This document shows positions 1,842 to 55,490 of a DNA stretch of 59,880 nucleotides, piece after piece. The position numbers were made by a program, and so were the translations under genes. The stretch's first letter is position 1; each line of letters begins with the position of its first letter. The notes under the pieces were generated by a model. That model made no database searches, was not told the origin of the DNA, and saw only the letters and a program-made list of their open reading frames with translations. The DNA is from Escherichia phage vB_Eco_SLUR75: the sequence record LR025197.1. One strand, written 5' to 3'.

Positions 1842-2321
1842 ATGGAAGTTACTGAAGCTGCTAAACGCATGGTAAAATTCTATGTCGGTTCTGATGCACC
1901 TTTAATTCGCGCTTTTGGTCAGGAACTTTATGTTTTCCAGGGCGATCGAGAGGAGGCTGAAGAAATTGCTCAGGCAATCCTCGATATGCAAGCAAAAGCG
2001 GATCGTGCGGAAGCCCTTGAAGCCGAATGGCGTGCTCAGGAAGAACGTGCCGAAAATGCTGAAACTAACCTTGTCGACATGCGTGCTGCTGAGCACGCTC
2101 TATCTGATTCTTATATTCGTTTGCGTCAAATTGTTGGTGCAATGAATCCGCCTGGTGTGAGCAGCGAAGAGGTGTGGGCGCATACCGAGAAGAAGGCTCA
2201 AGAGTTGCGTGATCGCTGCGAAGCTCTGGAAGCTATAGCAAAGGACTTCTTGCGTCGTAATAAATATGGTCCTTTGTTCTATCGTGATTTGTATAACCGT
2301 TTTAAGGAGATTGTGAAATGA
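1842..2321 (+). CDS. Hypothetical protein, acidic coiled-coil (159 aa)
   Basis: ATG at M5 of the track ORF (track start 1830 is GTG), preceded by GGTGGAG. Confidence 0.5.
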   Translation: MEVTEAAKRMVKFYVGSDAPLIRAFGQELYVFQGDREEAEEIAQAILDMQAKADRAEALEAEWRAQEERAENAETNLVDMRAAEHALSDSYIRLRQIVGAMNPPGVSSEEVWAHTEKKAQELRDRCEALEAIAKDFLRRNKYGPLFYRDLYNRFKEIVK

Positions 2322-21613: not shown

Positions 21614-24600
21614 TGCCACCAGCAATAATTGGAGCAGCGATAGCTTTAGGTGCGTCAGCTGCTGCTGCGGCTAGTATTATTTCGGCTACTACCGCTCTCG
21701 TTATCGGTATTGCTGCAACCGCGGCAGGTGCTCTTTTGACTAAGACACCAAATATGAACTTTGATGCTTACAAGGGTCAGCAAGAGCGTAAACAGGTTCT
21801 GCGTGCAGCTACAGCGTCACGTTCTGTTGTATATGGCACGACCGTAGCGTCCGGACTATTAGCATTTGCGGAGGAAGAAGCTGGAGATCAAGATGAAGGT
21901 GAATGGATGCATCTTGTTGTCGTTCTTGCCAGTCATAAATTGGAAGGTATTGAAACGATTTGGTTGGGCGATGACGGAATTGATTGGTTTGGTGAAAACG
22001 CTACTTGGGAGTTCCATAACGACCGTCAGACTGTTGACCCATTCATGTTAAAACATTGTCCTTCCTGGAAGGAGGATATGATTGGCAAGGGTATTGCATG
22101 GCTACGTTTAAGCTTAAAGTTTGATGCTGAAAAATTCCCATCCGGTTTGCCAAACGTCAAGGTGTTGAAAAAGGGACGTAGAATTTATGACCCACGTTCC
22201 GGTCAAACTGTCTTTAGCGATAACGCTGCTCTTGTTATTCTTGATTATTTCCGCACGTATTTAAAGCGCAAGGACGAGAATATTAACTGGGACCAATTCA
22301 AGGAAGCTGCTAACATCTGCGATGAGTTTGTTACTAACGCAGATAACACTACGGAAAGACGCTATCGCATTAACGGGGAGTTTGAAGTGGACGAAGCACC
22401 TGCCAAAATCCTTGATGCTATGCTTGAAGCTTGCGGTGGGGAACTAACCTATATTGGCGGTAAGCATGGTCTGTTAGTTGGTGCTTATTACGGCCCAGCC
22501 ACCATGACTTTGGATGAAAGCTGCATTGCTGGGGATATTAAAATAATCCCTGAGACATCTTATAAAGAGCGTACCAATACCATTACAGGTACATTCGTCG
22601 ACCCGAAGCAAACATACGCTGAAGCAGATTTTCCTCCAGTTGTGGTTAAGGAATGGGTGGAAAAAGATGGCGGTGAAATAACGCAAGACATGGATTTCCG
22701 CTTTGTTACAAGTGAATATCAAGCTCAACGTCTTGCTAATATTATTTTACGTCGTAAGCGTGTTGGTCGAACAATTGAAGTTCCGTGTAACATGAAGGGG
22801 TATAAATTCCGCCCAGGCATGTATGTCAACGTAACCATTTCAAACATCGGAATGAAAAACGTTGAGATGCGCGTTACTAAATGGTCATTCGATCCTAAAG
22901 GTGGGATTAATCTTGTCCTTCGTCAAGACTTCCTGGAAATGTGGGACGACGCTATTGGTAAACCAATGGAGCGCCCGGATCTGGTAGACCTTCCGTCTGG
23001 TGCTATTGCTCAACCGCAAAACCTTCAGTATCAGGTATTGCAGATTAGCGATGTTGTGCAGGGTGTTTTAACGTGGAGCAATATTGGGCAGGTAGCATAT
23101 AACCGCGTAGCCGTGCGACAGGGAGGTACAACGGTTTGGACCGCACAAGTCCCTGGCCAAAACGTTCGCGTTACTGGGTTGCTGCGGGGCGCGTATACAG
23201 CGCATGTTCAAGCGGTAGCTTATAGCGGGGCAGTATCGCCGGAAGCATATCTGGAATTCAATATTCAAGCACCACCTCCGCCAACTTCTGTTGAAGTGCA
23301 ACAGGGTTACTTTGCTATAAGTTTGATCCCAAAATCTGCGGATATTGCAAACGTTAGCACGCAGTATGATTTCTGGACTTCCGGTGAAACAAGATTGTCT
23401 TCCGTGTCTACAGACATTGTAGAACGCGAAGCAACTCGTAAAGGTATGGGTACAACTTGGACGTCGGAAGGGTTGAAGAATGACCACACTTATTACTGGT
23501 ATGTCCGCACCATTAACGCTTTCGGATCATCTGCATTTGTAGAAGTAGCTGCATTGTGCTTTACAACAGCTACAGATTTGATGCCACAAATTGATTCTGA
23601 ATTCAAGAAGACGGAGACTTATAAAGAGCTCACTACTGAAATCACAGGTGTTAAAGATGGAGTTACTCAGCTTAGCCAAACTGTAGTGCAAACTGAAAAG
23701 CGTTTAAGTCAAAGCGTTAGCAATGTTCAACAAAGCGTTATCACTTTGGATGGTGTTGTTCAGGATCATGGCGTTACCATTAATAAACAAGGACAGCTCA
23801 TCGATGCACAGGGTAAGTTGATTGACACTCAAGGTAAGACTATTGAAACGGTTAGCGCGACCGTGCAGGAGACAAGTAAAGCAGTTGTAGATCTGGAAGG
23901 TAATGTTAACGCTCAATGGGGTGCTAAAGTACAGGTAGATAGTAAAGGGCAAAAATACGTTGCTGGTATGCAGTTAGGTATGGAAGGGTCCGGTGGAGCT
24001 GTTCAGTCTTACTTCATGGTAAGTGCTAACAACTTTGCTATCTATAACCCGACAAATAGCGTAGCAGAACTAGCATTTGCTGTTAAGAACGGTCAAGTGT
24101 TCATGAAGGCTGCGTTTATTGAAAATGGTACTATTGACAGCGCTAAAATTTCAAATCAAATTCAGTCAACAAACTACGCAAACAATAGCGCGGGTTGGAT
24201 GATTAACAAGAATGGTAGCGCTCAGTTTAACAACGTAACGATAAGAGGTACTGTATACGCTAGCAACGGATCTTTCACAGGCACAGTGAACGCAACAAGC
24301 GGTAAATTCAAGGGTACTGTGGAAGCTACCAGTTTTGTGGGTGATGTTGCGAATATGTGTGTCATTGCTGAGTCTGCAATACCAAACACACAAACTACAA
24401 GTTCAAGAACCTGGACAAAAACTTTCAAAGACTCATCTGGTTCAACATTATCTAAAGACTTTGTGTTGCTATTAAGTTATAGTTTAACCGCATATACATC
24501 AAATCAGGCGAGTCGTATAATTGTGACTGCTAACATAGGGGGGACATCAATTACAAGGAGGATTGAGCGAGCTGCCAATGGACCTGCGATGGATGTAACC

Positions 24601-51236: not shown

Positions 51237-51704
51237 TTATTGGATTGATCCGCGATCAATTAACCATTGTTTCGCGTGCGCTTTAAAGATAATGCGGTAG
51301 TCATCGAGACTAATTTCCGCGCGGATGGAATCTTTAACTTCATACCACTGCCATTCACCATTACTGAAGACAACCGGATTAAGCGGTAGAACGACCTTCC
51401 ATCCTTTACGTTCTATTTTATACATCAGAACTGGATATCTGCCAAGCTCTTTAGCAGATTGGACAGTCTGCTTCCACCATGTGTTTACTTGTGGCGTAGC
51501 ATGGTTTTTTACTTCAACCGCATGGTGGCATGTATTGCTGATATCACAACCACCGACAGCACTTTGATTCTGGTTTCGCTGAGCAATAGGTTTTTCCGGT
51601 AACTGCATCCCCAGCTCTGCGTAGATTTCGGCATAAATTGCATTAAAGAAATCACATACTTCCCGCTCACCGCGTTGACCTTTAGCGCGAATATTTACTG
51701 CCAT
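51237..51704 (-). CDS. Hjc-type Holliday junction resolvase (155 aa)
   Basis: N-terminal AKGQRGEREV matches the KGxxxERE motif of archaeal-type Hjc; ATG at M11 of track ORF with GGAG RBS. Confidence 0.55.
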   Translation of the reverse strand: MAVNIRAKGQRGEREVCDFFNAIYAEIYAELGMQLPEKPIAQRNQNQSAVGGCDISNTCHHAVEVKNHATPQVNTWWKQTVQSAKELGRYPVLMYKIERKGWKVVLPLNPVVFSNGEWQWYEVKDSIRAEISLDDYRIIFKAHAKQWLIDRGSIQ

Positions 51705-51776
51705 GTTTGTCTCCATAACTTTAATGTAAAACACTTCATAAAGAATTTTATATTGAAGTTATGTTGATCGCAAGGA

Positions 51777-51809
51777 ACAAAAAAGCCCAGGCATAAGGAT
51801 TCCTGGGCT
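51777..51809 (-). terminator. Rho-independent terminator (reverse strand)
   Basis: AGCCCAGG-cataaggatt-CCTGGGCT hairpin followed on the reverse strand by TTTTTTG. Confidence 0.65.
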
Positions 51810-51921
51810 CTCTTGATTGTCGGATAGCTTACTTTGACTGCCGTCTTCGTCTACCCTGGCCTACTTGTACAGCCTCGCCAAAGGCTGGTGACGGTTTGGT
51901 ACATCTGGCGCCGTCTCGTTA

Positions 51922-52085
51922 AACATCGTTTACATCGTTCAGTAAGTTGCGGGTTTACCCTGTCCGCTCCAGGAAGCCCAGCGAAAGTAGTTGCTGTAAG
52001 GAGGTACAGCTACCGCTTTCAAGGGCTTGAGTTAAGCATCGTTCACTAAGTTAATGTTGTTAAATTGTTAAACCTCGTTAACTGT
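51922..52085. repeat. Direct repeats CATCGTTCA(G/C)TAAGTT and clustered GTTAA motifs in noncoding region
   Basis: Two 16-bp near-identical copies about 104 bp apart plus a partial copy; five GTTAA within about 55 bp. Confidence 0.5.
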
Positions 52086-52121
52086 GGTTATCTTAAAGGA
52101 TGCAGTCTTGAATGGCAAGCT

Positions 52122-52436
52122 TCAATTTTGCGCGGTTCCCTTTGCCGCTTTTGGTGCTAAAGTACCATCATTTAACATCAACTCAAAACCTGTTACTTGA
52201 TCGGTTGGAACAATAGGGTAATTCATAATAGCCATGTGGATACGATGCCCTCCGTCACATTCATCGATGTATTCATTACCCCAATAGTATAAATGCCCAT
52301 CTCTTCGAATATCCATTGCTGTTGGGAAATCTACAAGAATTCTTTTGATTTCTTTTCGTCCTTCTTTATGCAGATTAGTTTCAATACGGATAAGCTCCGC
52401 ATAAATTGCTTCACAGATAGTGTTTACAATTCCCAT
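52122..52436 (-). CDS. Hypothetical protein (104 aa)
   Basis: ORF with HxxxH/Cys content (ECDGGHRIHMAI). Confidence 0.5.
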   Translation of the reverse strand: MGIVNTICEAIYAELIRIETNLHKEGRKEIKRILVDFPTAMDIRRDGHLYYWGNEYIDECDGGHRIHMAIMNYPIVPTDQVTGFELMLNDGTLAPKAAKGTAQN

Positions 52437-52439
52437 TTT

Positions 52440-52655
52440 TCATTCCTCACAGTCTTTGATATTTTTAGGGATGAGAATATAACGATTGTGTTTTGGAAAA
52501 TTATCACTGCAACAATTACAAAGACCTCCCATTACATTTTGATTACCTACAGCATGTAAAGAACCGTCTAATCCGATAATAATTACATCATTATTAATGT
52601 AACCAAATTGATCAACCGGAGCCTGGCCTTCAATAACTTCTAATTCAATTTTCAT
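52440..52655 (-). CDS. Hypothetical protein (71 aa)
   Basis: ATG at M59 of track ORF with RBS GAGGTG; the longer GTG-initiated version lacks an RBS. Confidence 0.45.
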   Translation of the reverse strand: MKIELEVIEGQAPVDQFGYINNDVIIIGLDGSLHAVGNQNVMGGLCNCCSDNFPKHNRYILIPKNIKDCEE

Positions 52656-52663
52656 CTTACACC

Positions 52664-52738
52664 TCACAGAATATACATAAACCAGAAATAACCAGCTACG
52701 AAAATAGCACCCGCAAATAATTTTAAAAGCTCGAACAT
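52664..52738 (-). CDS. Candidate 24-aa hydrophobic peptide (MFELLKLFAGAIFVAGYFWFMYIL)
   Basis: ATG with strong RBS GGAGGG; stop overlaps the RBS of the downstream gene; below the ORF-track size cutoff. Confidence 0.3.
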   Translation of the reverse strand: MFELLKLFAGAIFVAGYFWFMYIL

Positions 52739-52837
52739 TGTTCCCTCCGTTAACGTTATGCTGTAAGTATAGCAGGACTTGCGATGTGTGCAACAACTTT
52801 AGACTTGAAACGCATCTATAAAATAGCACGATTTGCC

Positions 52838-52866
52838 TTTACCTCTGATCCGTCTAGCTGTACTAT
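52838..52866 (+). promoter_or_regulatory. Sigma70-like promoter candidate for ORF 52897..53121
   Basis: TTTACC, 17-nt spacer, TACTAT. Confidence 0.3.
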
Positions 52867-52896
52867 TAACCCATAAACAGAGCGGAGGATTACAAA

Positions 52897-53121
52897 ATGG
52901 TCATGCTGAATAAAGTATATAGCACAATGGGCGCGGATTATAAAGTTGTACGTCACCCGCGTACTGGTAAATTTGAAGCATACATCCGTCCAATGGGTGA
53001 AGGTTGGATGTATTACGGTACTTATGATGACGCTGAGCAAGCTTATAAAGAAGCGGAAAGTGTAGCGGAAGCATCCGAAATTATGGCAAGGTACGACGTC
53101 GATGATTACTACCTTAACTAA
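52897..53121 (+). CDS. Isolated forward-strand gene within the reverse arm (74 aa)
   Basis: Strong RBS GGAGG 8 nt before ATG; followed by a bidirectional terminator shared with the primase gene. Confidence 0.55.
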   Translation: MVMLNKVYSTMGADYKVVRHPRTGKFEAYIRPMGEGWMYYGTYDDAEQAYKEAESVAEASEIMARYDVDDYYLN

Positions 53122-53125
53122 CAAT

Positions 53126-53149
53126 AAAGGGCCTTTCGGCCCTTTATTT
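53126..53149. terminator. Bidirectional terminator
   Basis: AAAGGGCC-tttc-GGCCCTTT hairpin with flanking A- and T-runs. Confidence 0.65.
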
Positions 53150-55490
53150 ATTCCTCTTCTCCTAAGTTTGCCATAATACCTTCAACATCTTGCGTAATGC
53201 GCCAAGCTGCGCCAGTGAATCCCAGTTTGATAGTCTCCTCCCGTGTTACCGGAACAAGAGCACCCATAGCAACCATCTCCTTGATCGTAGACTCAATTGC
53301 TGCGGACAATCCGTGGTGATAGTTTTTAAACGCGGACTTACTTGCAAGACGAGTAGTAATATCACCCCGCGTGATTATGCCTTCCTTACGCAGATCTACA
53401 CGTTTAACTTTCACCCAATCTTTAGTTAGATAATTCACACAAACCTGGCACATAGTACGGATACGAGCTTCGTCATTAGTACCGATACCCCCACTATGCC
53501 ATTCCTTCATAATGATATCCTGTCCATGACGCACAAAGTCCAAGGCCCATTGAACATGATAGGTCTGCACAACCGGATTGATCCAGTTTTCTCCCACAGC
53601 TAACAGGGCGGATAGACGTAACACCTTCAGGTGCGCACGGTTCCACGGCTGACGGATTGCTTCGTCTTTGGTTGCGTTAATATTACGGTCACATTCGTCG
53701 TTAAACTGATCACATAATGCTTCCGCATCCGGGCTAAACTGCACTTCAATACTTTGATGCTTTGCCATTGCGACTAAGGTGTGGTTAACAAGATGGCACA
53801 CCATATCCCGCAAATGCTGATCCATTGTAGTCTGCTGGTTCTTGTTTAAAGGTGGTCGATCCCCTTCATAGCGGACAACATGGAAACGGGATAAGAAACC
53901 ATCCTCCATCATTTCACGCGTCAACGCTTCAAAAAACGTGTCCGGTGTCGTTTCGCCCATGATGCTATAGGCCACACCTTGTTGAGCTTCCGTATTATTA
54001 GCCTTATCAGAATAAGACATACCACCGACAATAGACATCTGACCAGACTTTTGATAAACATCGGTGAGGTCGTTCTTGAAGCTTTGCATCGGTGAACCTG
54101 CTGGCGCTGTTGCCATTGCTTTAATAATCTTACCAAACTCACCGTTCAAGTTGATAAAAGATTGTTTGTCCGCAAAAGATTTACGCAACGCAGAGCCGGA
54201 AGCGCATCGGTCAAAAGATACAAAGCTATGAATCTGCGGAAACGGTTCCTGAAGCTGGCTAACTATATTAGATAGACCACTGTTCAACGTTTCTTTACCA
54301 ACACCAGAACGAGCAATAAGGACAAAATATCCATTAAGACCGGATTGAGGAATCTGCCAAACCTTCCCGCATACGCCAGCCATAAATCCTAGTGCTGTCA
54401 CAATAGAAATTTCTTTCACTGGTCGGACGGATGCTTTGTAGATGTACTTCGCAAGCTCCCCAGCAAGTCCCGGCGGCCAGTCAATAGCGGTTGCATCAAT
54501 AGATGTACTTTCTGCAACTACTGTCTGCCCCTGTGTTGTTTCAACAGTTACGGGCATTTCCGCTACCTGCTGCATTGCACTGTGTGCCGCTTGCATACGG
54601 GCAGCATAATCCCGCGCCAGCGCCGCTACGTTTTCCTGGGCAATGCGCTCACGCTCCATGCGACCGCGACACATACGCAAGCAACGGTCAATATGAACAT
54701 TGTTCTTATTAGCCTTCTCACGTTTGCCCAGTGCGCTATAACGGAACAGACGACGACATTGCTCATTACTTTCCGTGTAAAATGCATACATAGAAATAAG
54801 GGCAAGGTCTGCTTCAGACTGGGAAGGGAATCCCATTTCAACCCATTCACCATTAAATAACCGCGCATACTTATCACCGTTATCTGCTTCAAGTGCGCGC
54901 TGATGAATAGTTGCATCATCTTCTACCGGATCTTTTTCTACCAGTTCAATTTCATATGTCTTGCGCTGAAGATCAATTTCATTCACAAGCATCGTAAGGT
55001 AATGATCACGTTCTGCAACTGGTTTGTTGTAGACGGGATTGCCCGTGCAGATAATAAAACGCTCCTGACTATAAACCTCGACACCATCACGTCGACGACC
55101 TTTACCGATGTTACCTCTTAACCACAGGTGAACACCCAAGCCTGAGCGGCTCACTTCGGTGTAAGTATCGAACGCAGTCATGATCTGTTCGAAGCGGCGC
55201 AACTGCTCCGGCGTCGTGTGCTTCTTGGGATCAGGTTCATTGGTTGCATTCTTCACATCCAGGTCGATGCAGGTGAACGGGTCTTGTGCAGTAAGCACGA
55301 ATCCAATATAAGGTTTATTGAAATGAGCGGCGCAACCTTTGGCAGCTTCAAACGTCATAAGCATATCCGGATCGGTAACGTCCGCCGCCATCAAACGTCC
55401 AATATCGCTATCCCATACCAACGGCTTTTTATCCGCATCGGCGACCGCCCATTGTGGGAAAGCTTTAATTTCAGCGGGAAACAGTTCCAT
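53148..55490 (-). CDS. Primase-polymerase / helicase fusion (780 aa)
   Basis: N-terminal archaeo-eukaryotic-primase-like motifs CIDLDVKN and GLGVHLWLRGN; central P-loop LIARSGVGKETL. Confidence 0.6.
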   Translation of the reverse strand: MELFPAEIKAFPQWAVADADKKPLVWDSDIGRLMAADVTDPDMLMTFEAAKGCAAHFNKPYIGFVLTAQDPFTCIDLDVKNATNEPDPKKHTTPEQLRRFEQIMTAFDTYTEVSRSGLGVHLWLRGNIGKGRRRDGVEVYSQERFIICTGNPVYNKPVAERDHYLTMLVNEIDLQRKTYEIELVEKDPVEDDATIHQRALEADNGDKYARLFNGEWVEMGFPSQSEADLALISMYAFYTESNEQCRRLFRYSALGKREKANKNNVHIDRCLRMCRGRMERERIAQENVAALARDYAARMQAAHSAMQQVAEMPVTVETTQGQTVVAESTSIDATAIDWPPGLAGELAKYIYKASVRPVKEISIVTALGFMAGVCGKVWQIPQSGLNGYFVLIARSGVGKETLNSGLSNIVSQLQEPFPQIHSFVSFDRCASGSALRKSFADKQSFINLNGEFGKIIKAMATAPAGSPMQSFKNDLTDVYQKSGQMSIVGGMSYSDKANNTEAQQGVAYSIMGETTPDTFFEALTREMMEDGFLSRFHVVRYEGDRPPLNKNQQTTMDQHLRDMVCHLVNHTLVAMAKHQSIEVQFSPDAEALCDQFNDECDRNINATKDEAIRQPWNRAHLKVLRLSALLAVGENWINPVVQTYHVQWALDFVRHGQDIIMKEWHSGGIGTNDEARIRTMCQVCVNYLTKDWVKVKRVDLRKEGIITRGDITTRLASKSAFKNYHHGLSAAIESTIKEMVAMGALVPVTREETIKLGFTGAAWRITQDVEGIMANLGEEE

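Follow-up and report, generated by a model that had tools for sequence, protein, structure and literature searches.

Layout of the locus

The window, i.e., the whole stretch of 59,880 nt that we analysed, is the genome of a Seuratvirus (CAjan/Seurat/KS_A3-like). Between its primase operon and its nuclease/dUTPase operon lie a 24-codon gene and an AP2-type gene, placed back-to-back, which we infer to be a compact two-way control module beside a hotspot of accessory-gene swaps. The position of this module, 3' of the primase gene, is ancient and common to Seuratvirus, Nonagvirus, and Vidquintavirus. An earlier note on this DNA had described a forward unit that opposes the surrounding genes, and the 74-aa gene is indeed the sole plus-strand gene within ~20 kb of minus-strand genes. 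A literature search returned no report of transcription, translation, or localisation for the locus in any Seuratvirus, and the locus is not dealt with in the papers on CSP1 lysis suppression, KpAvs2, daunorubicin, and BASEL. The features are the following.

51778..51809, minus strand: intrinsic terminator AGCCCAGG-aatccttatg-CCTGGGCT-TTTTTT, read from the sequence, closing the leftward unit
52122..52436, minus strand: conserved 104-aa gene (phrog_25787), last cistron of the leftward unit
52440..52655, minus strand: accessory-gene slot, here a 71-aa gene (ATG at 52655, 8 nt after the peptide stop)
52440..52829, minus strand: 129-aa GTG ORF, i.e., the 71-aa gene extended upstream, in another frame than the peptide
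52664..52738, minus strand: 24-codon gene of the hydrophobic peptide MFELLKLFAGAIFVAGYFWFMYIL, first cistron of the leftward operon
52748-52743, minus strand: SD GGAGGG of the 24-codon gene, 4 nt before its ATG
52766..52793, minus strand: predicted promoter P_L, -35 TTGCAC (52793-52788), 16-nt spacer, extended -10 TGcTATACT (52774-52766)
52823..52836, no strand assigned: copy 2 of the direct repeat ATAGCAnGAyTTGC, from a repeat search (copy 1 lies at 52769-52782, over the P_L -10)
52838..52866, plus strand: candidate promoter P_R, TTTACC (52838-43)-17-TACTAT (52861-66), predicted start ~52873
52897..53121, plus strand: 74-aa AP2-type gene (phrog_22269), SD GGAGG at 52884-52888
53123..53148, no strand assigned: bidirectional terminator AATAAAGGGCC-TTTC-GGCCCTTTATT, a match of the plus-strand terminator scan, palindromic with T-rich flanks on both strands

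The 24-codon gene and its peptide

The 24-codon ORF with its GGAGGG SD had been singled out in the earlier note; position and sequence are as it said, and the variation among relatives bears out coding selection. The window holds four other SD-preceded hydrophobic mini-ORFs, so that the ORF alone is not beyond chance; its pattern of conservation is well beyond chance. The ORF is intact at its exact length in every one of the 37 records of related phages, in 10 metagenome contigs, and in a recombinant-tail allele. We retrieved 31 loci (10 of them metagenome contigs) with 25 DNA alleles and 12 peptide variants, and the SD and the 24 codons are kept in every one, including STP-SP5, yong3, L033, and Vid5. 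Variable sites fall mostly at codon position 3 (18 of 25, p=9e-5; 17 of 24 with the metagenome alleles added, p=2e-4), and 14 of the 18 variable codons are synonymous in the peptide frame versus 0 of 19 and 1 of 19 in the other frames. The dN/dS ratio is 0.02-0.16 for most pairs, and even at a nucleotide divergence of 30-45% the open frame still measures exactly 24 codons, the divergent members keeping length, SD, and motif. These patterns indicate that the ORF is a real protein-coding gene under purifying selection at the protein level.

The same variation settles the status of the overlapping 129-aa ORF, whose N-terminus the earlier note had suspected to be junk: since in its frame 18 of the 19 variable codons differ in the amino acid that they encode, the N-terminal extension is non-coding, and several BASEL and KS phages have been deposited with the long GTG ORF by mis-annotation.

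Could the DNA itself be what is conserved, as a regulatory or recombination linker or as the target of a homing endonuclease, with the open frame being incidental? The module is a 93-98% identical island with mosaic flanks, HNH-AP2 homing endonucleases adjoin it in STP-SP5 and SWJM-02, and nuclease genes are established markers of exchange boundaries (PMC10448857). Yet a constraint on DNA does not produce variation with a 3-nt period, and the frame of 24 codons is open even at the divergence given above. Moreover, no other part of the module varies as much as the 24-codon ORF: 37% of its sites are variable, compared with 15% of the intergenic region and 11% of the 74-aa gene, and its variation falls at codon position 3. 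The variation pattern, the comparison of frames, and the dN/dS values largely refute this explanation, which we regard as extremely unlikely. Part of the conservation of the module's DNA could nonetheless come from recombination or gene-conversion sweeps and not from selection alone. The mosaic structure around the module is well established. An origin of the module in the host or in a plasmid was rejected, as it has no match in 5,426 E. coli genomes or in plasmids.

Three parts can be recognised in the peptide: its N-terminus is short and polar, positions 9-11 are taken by small residues, and a Y-F-W-x-M-Y aromatic belt lies near the C-terminus. It has a GRAVY of 1.66 and 8 aromatic residues out of 24; five family members range from 1.6 to 1.8, and the aromatic content of the family is 8-10 of 24. 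In all five, the best 19-mer has a Wimley-White octanol transfer energy of -10 to -14 kcal/mol, i.e., the hydrophobic stretch has the length (at least ~19 residues) and the favourable transfer energy of a segment that spans the bilayer. The peptide is thus probably a single-pass microprotein of the inner membrane.

No Pfam, NCBIfam, or PHROG family covers the peptide, and a profile of its family found no chain in the PDB at E<=10. A segment of cytochrome c oxidase subunit I of Acidobacteriota, SAFVLGSAQLIFVANYFWSMY, was matched by a degenerate DNA pattern and aligns without gaps to the yong3 peptide; we rejected this likeness as a by-product of selection by pattern, because oxidases are abundant in the PDB and the peptide profile finds none of its chains. 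Only one of the 37 deposited records annotates the gene (Cronobacter phage CSP1, CSP1_063), and an exact-sequence look-up of the peptide found only this copy and the over-long ORF59 of Vid5. Pantoea phage Vid5, which belongs to another genus, has a syntenic counterpart of 24 aa with 29% identity; the score is not significant, and the link is made by synteny, length, and composition. The gene has also been transferred into Felixounavirus, two members of which carry a copy that is 94% identical, with promoter and ORF intact. The novelty is modest: the family of small proteins is new, but layouts of this kind are known.

Small single-pass membrane proteins often modulate a larger membrane protein. 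The peptide resembles the E. coli proteins YohP (27 aa), YpdK, KdpF, AcrZ, and CydX in its size (20-50 aa), in consisting of about one hydrophobic helix, and in having its own SD. Like the small hydrophobic phage ORFs revealed by ribosome profiling, it is routinely missed by gene callers. It differs from the known small membrane proteins in lacking sequence similarity to curated families, in being encoded by a phage as a first cistron, and in being unusually aromatic. Since it matches no known family of small proteins, any target that one may name for it is a guess.

The type I toxins are of similar size (IbsC 19 aa, ShoB 26 aa, TisB 29 aa), and the peptide could by analogy depolarise membranes like Ibs, ShoB, or TisB, serving host shut-off, addiction, or exclusion. 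The likeness to these toxins lies in the very short length, the extreme hydrophobicity, and the absence of soluble domains; besides, a strong promoter precedes the peptide gene, which transfers as a self-contained cassette. But the hallmarks of type I loci are missing. There is no antisense promoter-like site on the plus strand across 52600-52760, over or downstream of the ORF, and the divergent promoters stand back-to-back, such that their transcripts do not overlap. The leader is short (~21 nt) and unstructured (fold z=+0.9), whereas type I leaders are long and folded. No curated toxin family of NCBIfam or Pfam was matched, and no chromosomal copies were found, the module being absent from the E. 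coli genomes and plasmids mentioned above. We deem a toxin very unlikely. Riboregulation of the peptide mRNA was rejected on the same lack of structure, together with the lack of an Rfam match.

The leftward unit and its accessory slot

The 24-codon gene is preceded by P_L, whose predicted start at ~52759 gives the leader its length. This promoter was read from the sequence and lies below the per-hexamer rule of the scan. Its -35 is TTGCAT in most relatives, TGCTATACT in the P_L region is invariant in 17 close relatives, and the position is kept further away: TTGCCA-16-TATAAT in yong3, TGGACT-17-TGcTATAAT in STP-SP5, TTGCAT-17-TACATT in Vid5, and an identical site in SWJM-02. This positional conservation points to a promoter of the sigma-70 type. 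The intergenic repeat is kept in STP-SP5 and SWJM-02, and partly in yong3; read on the minus strand, its copy 2 forms another TGCTATnnT box, located 54 nt upstream of P_L, and this box could serve as an upstream promoter or be bound by a protein. We considered the repeat as an operator of the AP2 protein and rejected it, because it is present in yong3 and SWJM-02, neither of which has the AP2 gene. As yong3 shows, the repeat is not specific to the AP2 protein, and a second TGCTAT box is the simpler explanation of it.

The overlap between the stop of the peptide gene and the RBS of the next gene, which the earlier note had also reported, is real: the TGA (52666-52664) overlaps with GAGGTG, the SD of the next cistron. 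A stop over the next SD is found in every relative, in the form of TGAGGTG.., TAGGGG.., TAAGGGG.., or TAATG (Vid5). What follows varies. The junction TGAGGTrTrArATG precedes different genes in the relatives (65, 71, 72, 85, 115, or 135 aa, or an HNH-AP2 endonuclease), and the slot is non-homologous between relatives in which both flanks are 93-98% identical. The overlap of the peptide stop with the next SD would make the peptide gene and its promoter a fixed head for expression, and a recombination anchor for the accessory slot.

This arrangement raises the question of whether the 24-codon ORF is but a leader, or upstream ORF, whose translation is coupled to the RBS of the slot gene or opens it, the peptide itself being functionless. 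The constant overlap of stop and SD speaks in favour of such a role, as does the fact that the ORF is always the first cistron, with interchangeable genes after it. However, a device for coupling needs no fixed amino-acid sequence, and here the substitutions are overwhelmingly synonymous or conservative, while the length of the peptide and its pattern of aromatic and small residues persist across genera. Furthermore, the downstream SD is strong on its own, and a structure that would sequester it is neither predicted nor conserved. A leader without a functional peptide seems rather unlikely to us, but a leader role and a peptide role are not mutually exclusive.

Downstream of the slot, the 104-aa gene resembles a sub-domain of the HK97 fold moderately, and this has no bearing on the peptide. 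Between this gene and the terminator lie ~320 nt of conserved untranslated sequence (51810-52121), and a search of the gap at 51735-52121 found no tRNA and no known RNA. The scan missed the terminator at 51778..51809 because its loop has 10 nt. Just beyond it, a promoter-like site for the next operon reads TTGCGA-17-TAAAAT (51773-51745).

The AP2-type gene, the cargo slots, and a proposed mechanism

The 74-aa gene that the earlier note had placed at 52897..53121 behind a GGAGG RBS is a real gene, already annotated as hypothetical in relatives (Seurat gp59, CAjan AJT60547). With 30 of its 49 variable sites at codon position 3, it is under protein-coding selection. Its promoter fared less well. 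The proposed site TTTACC-17-TACTAT exists, and its -10 is invariant in close relatives, six of which have TTTACA at the -35; but it matches the consensus at 8 of 12 positions, below the threshold of a scan in which promoter-like sites were no commoner than in shuffled sequence. The -35 is conserved among the Seuratviruses of E. coli only and not in STP-SP5, and the -10 is kept as far as Vid5, which has TGcTATAGT followed by the same TAACCCATA as here. P_R is hence best seen as a weak candidate promoter, for which conservation is the argument. The hairpin at 53123-53148 has the bidirectional character ascribed to it: its stem is invariant in 17 relatives, its loop varies or flips (GAAA/TTTC/ATTT), and the annotations of Seurat, SA80RD, and SA126VB list a terminator here on either strand. 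The rightward 74-aa gene and the leftward primase operon share it as their terminator.

The 74-aa protein matches PF00847 over residues 17-59 (model positions 6-50 of 54) with 15.4 bits, below the gathering threshold of 33.3 (E=0.024). An hmmsearch with the profile of its family (A1) against 1.84 billion proteins gave 39 matches, mostly multi-repeat and covering residues ~12-57, and 9 of the 10 that we sampled are PF00847 proteins (E 1e-64 to 1e-13). The protein has the three-stranded antiparallel sheet packed on a C-terminal helix that defines the AP2 fold; the arm-binding domains of the Tn916, lambda, and HPI integrases have the same fold. K16, R19, R22, K25, and R31, together with W37, lie on the sheet and fit the DNA-contacting sheet of AP2 domains, the C-terminal helix and tail are long and acidic, and the net charge read from the sequence is ~-5. 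A Foldseek search of the 74-aa model against the PDB gave nothing significant. Fold and family identify a stand-alone AP2-type domain. The family is tiny: 5.8 billion proteins contain 3 clusters of it at 90% identity. It includes a divergent full-length homologue of 65 aa in STP-SP5 (L005, phrog_22269 E 4e-12), and a profile search added homologues of 66-74 aa (P0004, P0006, P0017). Vid5 ORF60 and JenP2 gp58 were rejected as homologues, as they find no support from hhalign, Pfam, or PHROGs.

In phages, an AP2 domain typically forms the C-terminal part of an HNH endonuclease, and there is precedent for the DNA-binding domains of homing endonucleases being co-opted as repressors (PMC10448857). 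The 74-aa protein differs from HNH-AP2 endonucleases in standing alone without a nuclease domain, in scoring below the Pfam threshold, and in its acidic C-terminal helix and tail. It is probably a DNA-binding regulator. Alternatively, it could be the remnant of an HNH-AP2 homing endonuclease in decay, or an acidic anti-defence protein (an Acr-like DNA mimic). In favour of these alternatives are the usual place of phage AP2 domains, the identity of 31-33% to the AP2 parts of neighbouring endonucleases, weak matches to the AcrIIA4 family in two libraries (E 0.04-0.08), the negative charge and acidic C-terminus, and the exchangeable cargo of the slot. Yet no HNH remnant lies upstream, where there is a promoter region instead; Pfam matched no HNH domain in the protein, and the PHROG HNH families align to it through the AP2 part only. 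Purifying selection and divergent full-length homologues indicate that the gene is not decaying. The Acr matches are far weaker than the evidence for AP2, and the basic residues of the sheet and W37 fit DNA contact. We judge the remnant and anti-defence explanations, taken together, to be unlikely. A repeat search and the comparison with relatives found no operator specific to the AP2 protein in the intergenic region of the module.

The slot that holds this gene, between the primase terminator and the divergent promoters, is filled with small genes that differ from genus to genus and are unrelated: phrog_22269 in this genome, phrog_17131 in JenP2 (a Nonagvirus), phrog_4301 in the Felixounavirus copy, and other unrelated genes in Vid5, yong3, and SWJM-02. 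The comparison with morons that the earlier note had drawn holds for the layout and for the swapping of cargo between genera. The cargo itself, an AP2 DNA-binding domain, suggests a regulator rather than a classic moron that increases host fitness. Seuratviruses are regarded in the literature as virulent phages (PMC8594841), and a virulent phage would have no use for a fitness gene expressed in the lysogen. With lambdoid morons and with the promoter-early stem-loop cassettes of T4-type phages, which flank shuffled early genes, the module shares an own terminator, an orientation opposite to the neighbours, and a conserved regulatory segment beside slots of variable cargo; for their own promoter, P_R is a candidate counterpart. 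Unlike in these systems, the conserved boundary here includes a translated micro-gene and not just a promoter and a hairpin.

We thus propose, as a reasonably probable explanation of the whole, that the locus consists of two back-to-back units, a membrane-peptide operon running leftward and an AP2 regulator running rightward. An extended -10 sigma-70 promoter of the host type would drive a short leftward operon with the 24-codon gene first. The peptide would most likely insert, as one transmembrane helix, into the inner membrane of the host and would probably act early in infection, on a membrane component of the host or of its defences or on membrane energetics. The leftward unit would run on through the 104-aa gene and the untranslated RNA to its own terminator. 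On the other side, a weak promoter would drive the AP2 protein, and the hairpin at its end would also stop the incoming primase operon. The protein, most likely a co-opted relative of the HNH-AP2 homing-endonuclease domain, would bind phage DNA as a small regulator. We infer in this model the membrane insertion and target of the peptide, its coupling to the next cistron, the binding and regulation of DNA by the AP2 protein, and the timing of expression.

The value of these results lies in annotation and in hypotheses, and they do not overturn current understanding. A family of 24-aa proteins that is conserved in at least two phage genera, was exchanged with a third, is absent from Pfam, NCBIfam, and PHROGs, and lacks annotation in 36 of the 37 deposited records provides a clean and testable case of the blind spot for small proteins in phage annotation. 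The second position of the operon, being a hotspot of gene swaps, is a defined place in which to seek accessory or anti-defence genes in Queuovirinae, and those who engineer these phages could find in the module a natural site for insertions. With the stand-alone AP2 protein, phages provide a further example of a DNA-binding domain of the endonuclease type that exists by itself.

A bolder and rather improbable extension is that promoter and micro-gene form a portable cassette for early expression, whose peptide has an autonomous membrane function (e.g., a change in membrane energetics, or the neutralisation of a defence or exclusion system embedded in the membrane), while the AP2 protein is a switch domesticated from an endonuclease domain. 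A membrane function selected in unrelated phages would explain the strict conservation, the jump from a siphovirus to myoviruses, and the role of fixed anchor. Under this extension, the jump from Seuratvirus into the Felixounaviruses would be recent.

The 24-codon ORF and its reading frame

The window is a Seuratvirus (Queuovirinae) genome, complete or nearly so. Across the studied region it shares 94-98% identity with Escherichia phages such as KS_A3, CAjan and Seurat. Its only sizeable plus-strand ORF beyond about 39.8 kb is 52897..53121; all others there are on the minus strand. The locus is flanked on one side by the primase gene and on the other by a series of small genes that leads towards a PDDEXK-type nuclease and a dUTPase.

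Features of the locus
53148..55490, minus: primase gene, one flank of the locus
53123-53148, both strands: hairpin terminator (terminator scan), a palindrome with T-rich flanks on either strand
52897..53121, plus: 74-aa ORF, GGAGG 8 nt 5' of its ATG
52793-52766, minus: leftward promoter, TTGCAC-16-TGcTATACT
52738..52664, minus: peptide ORF, 24 codons, SD GGAGGG at 52748-52743
52440..52655, minus: next cistron, 71 aa, ATG at 52655
51809-51778, minus: canonical terminator closing the leftward unit

The earlier note's coordinates and sequence for the 24-codon ORF and its GGAGGG SD are correct, as is its description of the 74-aa ORF with a GGAGG ribosome-binding site. However, the window contains four further SD-preceded hydrophobic mini-ORFs, so the 24-codon ORF by itself proves nothing. 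These others, of 18-29 aa, lie at 2056-2145 (+), 22187-22264 (+), 53793-53849 (+) and 54626-54700 (-), the last two within the primase gene.

We regard the comparative evidence for a real gene as decisive, judging from sequence conservation. The full-length peptide is present in 37/37 related phage records (tblastn), and a DNA-pattern scan added 3 IMG/VR and 10 metagenome contigs, with the 24-codon ORF intact in all. Among 31 retrieved loci, 25 distinct DNA alleles encode only 12 peptide variants. Codon position 3 accounts for 18/25 variable sites in close relatives (p=9e-5) and for 17/24 when metagenome alleles are added (p=2e-4); in the peptide frame, 14/18 variable codons carry synonymous changes only, and pairwise dN/dS is 0.02-0.16 in most pairs. 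Substitutions are mainly conservative (L4I, A11V/I, G16A), the exceptions being M21T, M21F and one L4P. Divergent Seuratviruses, among them STP-SP5 (MFEFVKIFASVIFIALYFWLMYWV), yong3 (MSAFVNIFGGSIFVAVYFWVMYFL) and the metagenome contig L033 (MYEFVKIFAGVIFVAVYFWFMYFL), retain exactly 24 codons, the SD and the motif I-F-x-A-x-Y-F-W-x-M-Y. In the SA126VB allele the 3' end is recombined (..FFYWL) and both stop and spacer differ, yet the ORF still has 24 codons. Within the module, the proportion of variable sites is highest in the peptide ORF, at 37%, followed by the intergenic region (15%) and the 74-aa gene (11%); that the most variable segment varies synonymously argues against a purely DNA-level constraint.

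The same DNA is covered, in another frame, by a 129-aa GTG ORF, which is the 71-aa gene extended upstream over the peptide into the promoter region. Its N-terminus had been called junk-like, in agreement with our finding that 18/19 variable codons change the amino acid in the long-ORF frame. In several BASEL and KS records it is this long GTG ORF that is annotated; the peptide ORF is annotated only in Cronobacter phage CSP1 (CSP1_063). New here are the comparative demonstration that the peptide gene is genuine but commonly overlooked, and its spread to other genera. Pantoea phage Vid5, of another genus (primase 58% identical), has at the same position an annotated 44-aa TTG ORF, inside which an SD-preceded ATG opens a 24-aa product (MGYILSLISSGLFAFAYFYIVWWL) with a matching small-residue patch and C-terminal aromatic belt. 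This putative link is based on synteny and pattern, its score not being significant.

All peptide members are extremely hydrophobic (GRAVY 1.6-1.8; octanol-scale value of the best 19-mer, -10 to -14 kcal/mol), with 0-2 charged residues, near the N-terminus, and 8-10 aromatic ones. Small residues 9-11 and A15/A16 could make up a helix-packing face, and Y17-F18-W/Y19 with Y/W22 make an aromatic belt of the interfacial kind. On the simplest reading, the peptide would be a single transmembrane helix without a soluble part. The functions of the peptide and of the 74-aa protein are ones that we infer. The peptide had no match in Pfam, PHROG, NCBIfam or PDB sequences. An Acidobacteriota cytochrome c oxidase subunit I segment, SAFVLGSAQLIFVANYFWSMY (loci L036 and L038-L040; metagenome loci L024, L032 and L035), aligns ungapped with the yong3 peptide at 14/21 identical residues; we rejected this resemblance as a search-pattern artefact because the peptide-family profile lacks any PDB match.

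The leftward unit and its variable slot

A sigma-70-type promoter precedes the peptide ORF in every relative (yong3, TTGCCA-16-TATAAT; STP-SP5, TGGACT-17-TGcTATAAT; Vid5, TTGCAT-17-TACATT), with the -10 at 27-31 nt upstream of the ATG. The leader, of about 21 nt, is unstructured (z=+0.9). The second cistron starts 7-9 nt past the peptide stop, usually 8, and overlaps it in Vid5. Its SD sits on the peptide stop codon, the overlap noticed earlier: in the window, the TGA lies within GAGGTG, which serves as SD for the 71-aa cistron. The slot gene itself differs between phages, with 65 aa in Seurat and CAjan, 71 aa in the window and KS_A3, 84 aa in yong3, and 72, 85, 115 or 135 aa in other relatives. 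In Salmonella phage STP-SP5 (retrieved locus L005, 1929-2483), an HNH-AP2 homing endonuclease immediately follows the peptide ORF. Homing endonucleases may drive exchange around the module. Also new is the role of the peptide gene as the constant first cistron ahead of a variable slot. HNH genes occur 1-2 kb further down in several other Seuratviruses.

Downstream of the slot come a conserved 104-aa gene (phrog_25787), a stretch of about 320 nt that lacks a convincing ORF, and the terminator at 51809-51778; immediately beyond it, the next operon has a promoter-like site. The ORF-poor stretch, 51810-52121 (-), could be either a ncRNA or a 3' UTR that is long and structured. It is 98% conserved in most relatives, has an RNA fold z-score of -3.1 and contains a promoter-like TTGCCA-17-TAAGAT at 52118-52090; tRNA and Rfam searches of it gave no match. 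Vid5 has a tRNA-Ser at the analogous place, and some relatives have small plus-strand ORFs annotated over it. Further on, the 165-aa ORF at 51237-51734 (-) matches PF24608 (phage putative PDDEXK endonuclease, E=2e-13), whereas relatives name its counterpart a RusA-like Holliday junction resolvase, so its annotation may be inconsistent.

An AP2-type forward gene

The 74-aa gene, hypothetical in relatives (Seurat gp59, CAjan AJT60547; phrog_22269), passes the coding test (30/49 variable sites at position 3). Its family is tiny, with 3 clusters among 5.8 billion proteins, and the direct Pfam AP2 match is weak (E=0.024, below threshold). An exhaustive search of 1.84 billion proteins with the family profile found 39 proteins, mostly multi-repeat, matched over residues ~12-57; 9/10 sampled matches are unmistakable tandem-AP2 proteins (PF00847, E 1e-64 to 1e-13). 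The canonical motifs align (YKVVRHPRTGKFEAYIRP..W..GTYDDAEQAYKEAE in the family, YRGVRRRESGRYAAEIRD..W..GTFDTAEEAACAYD in plants), and the AF2 model is beta-beta-beta-helix (pLDDT 78). We file the protein as a stand-alone AP2-type domain, predicted to bind DNA, an identity not previously described. We rejected a recent or decaying endonuclease remnant because the AP2 parts of neighbouring homing endonucleases are only 31-33% identical to the 74-aa protein, which has no HNH part. A regulatory role is suggested by the gene's divergent orientation relative to the leftward promoter, by the basic sheet of its product, and by precedent, since DNA-binding domains of endonucleases have been co-opted as repressors elsewhere (PMC10448857). 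No operator was found; the sole intergenic repeat also occurs in phages without the gene.

The promoter proposed ahead of this gene, TTTACC-17-TACTAT, is present as sequence, but only 8/12 positions match. Alone it carries no weight, since a consensus scan of this AT-rich DNA yields promoter-like sites no more numerous than in shuffled sequence. For the bidirectional terminator after the gene, the scan detects the hairpin, T-rich flanks occur on both strands, and across 17 relatives the stem is invariant while the loop is variable or flipped.

Mosaicism and transfer of the module

Nucleotide identity of the window to Greed-type Seuratviruses, by segment
Primase gene, 3' part: ~65% (protein 61%)
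Terminator, 74-aa gene, intergenic region, peptide ORF: 85-98%, mostly 93-98%
Slot after the peptide: non-homologous
104-aa gene: 96-98%

By these identities the module is an island of conservation, bounded at both ends by exchange points; the value for the short peptide ORF falls to 85% in CSP1 and the recombinant-tail SA126VB. Seuratvirus alleles of the primase C-terminal half (53148-54350) are either at least 99% identical to the window or about 61% in protein (~65% in nucleotides). Identity returns to ~95% at the terminator, 53123-53148, which marks a recombination boundary because the primase allele divergence ends there.

Window segments 52602-52836 and 52860-52916 recur at 94% identity in two unrelated phages, the Felixounaviruses SWJM-02 (a Salmonella phage; L004, 2545-3284) and SPJ41, myoviruses of 85-90 kb. 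This copy contains an identical peptide ORF, part of the 71-aa gene and the leftward promoter, intact. An inserted 127-aa gene (phrog_4301) separates the -35 of the rightward promoter from its -10, and next to the copy lies an HNH-AP2 homing endonuclease by which the DNA polymerase gene is split. The cassette has thus moved recently and is still intact in a foreign genome. In SWJM-02, a remnant of the rightward unit spans about 56 nt (-10, SD and the first six AP2-gene codons). The cassette was not found in 5,426 complete E. coli genomes or plasmids.

A small opposite-strand gene right after the primase terminator is also found in Nonagvirus JenP2 (gp58, L041 4300-4524; 74 aa, phrog_17131), Vid5 (ORF60, 73 aa) and yong3 (102 aa). 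JenP2 gp58 has the size and position of the 74-aa AP2 gene, with no 24-aa ORF after it. No mutual relationship was detected among these proteins, including between gp58 and the 74-aa protein. Differing genes at a shared position mean that the layout is old and its cargo exchangeable. The peptide represents a new small-protein family in a familiar type of phage architecture. The observation of the earlier note is confirmed and its reading supported: "moron-like" fits such a layout, although these phages are virulent.
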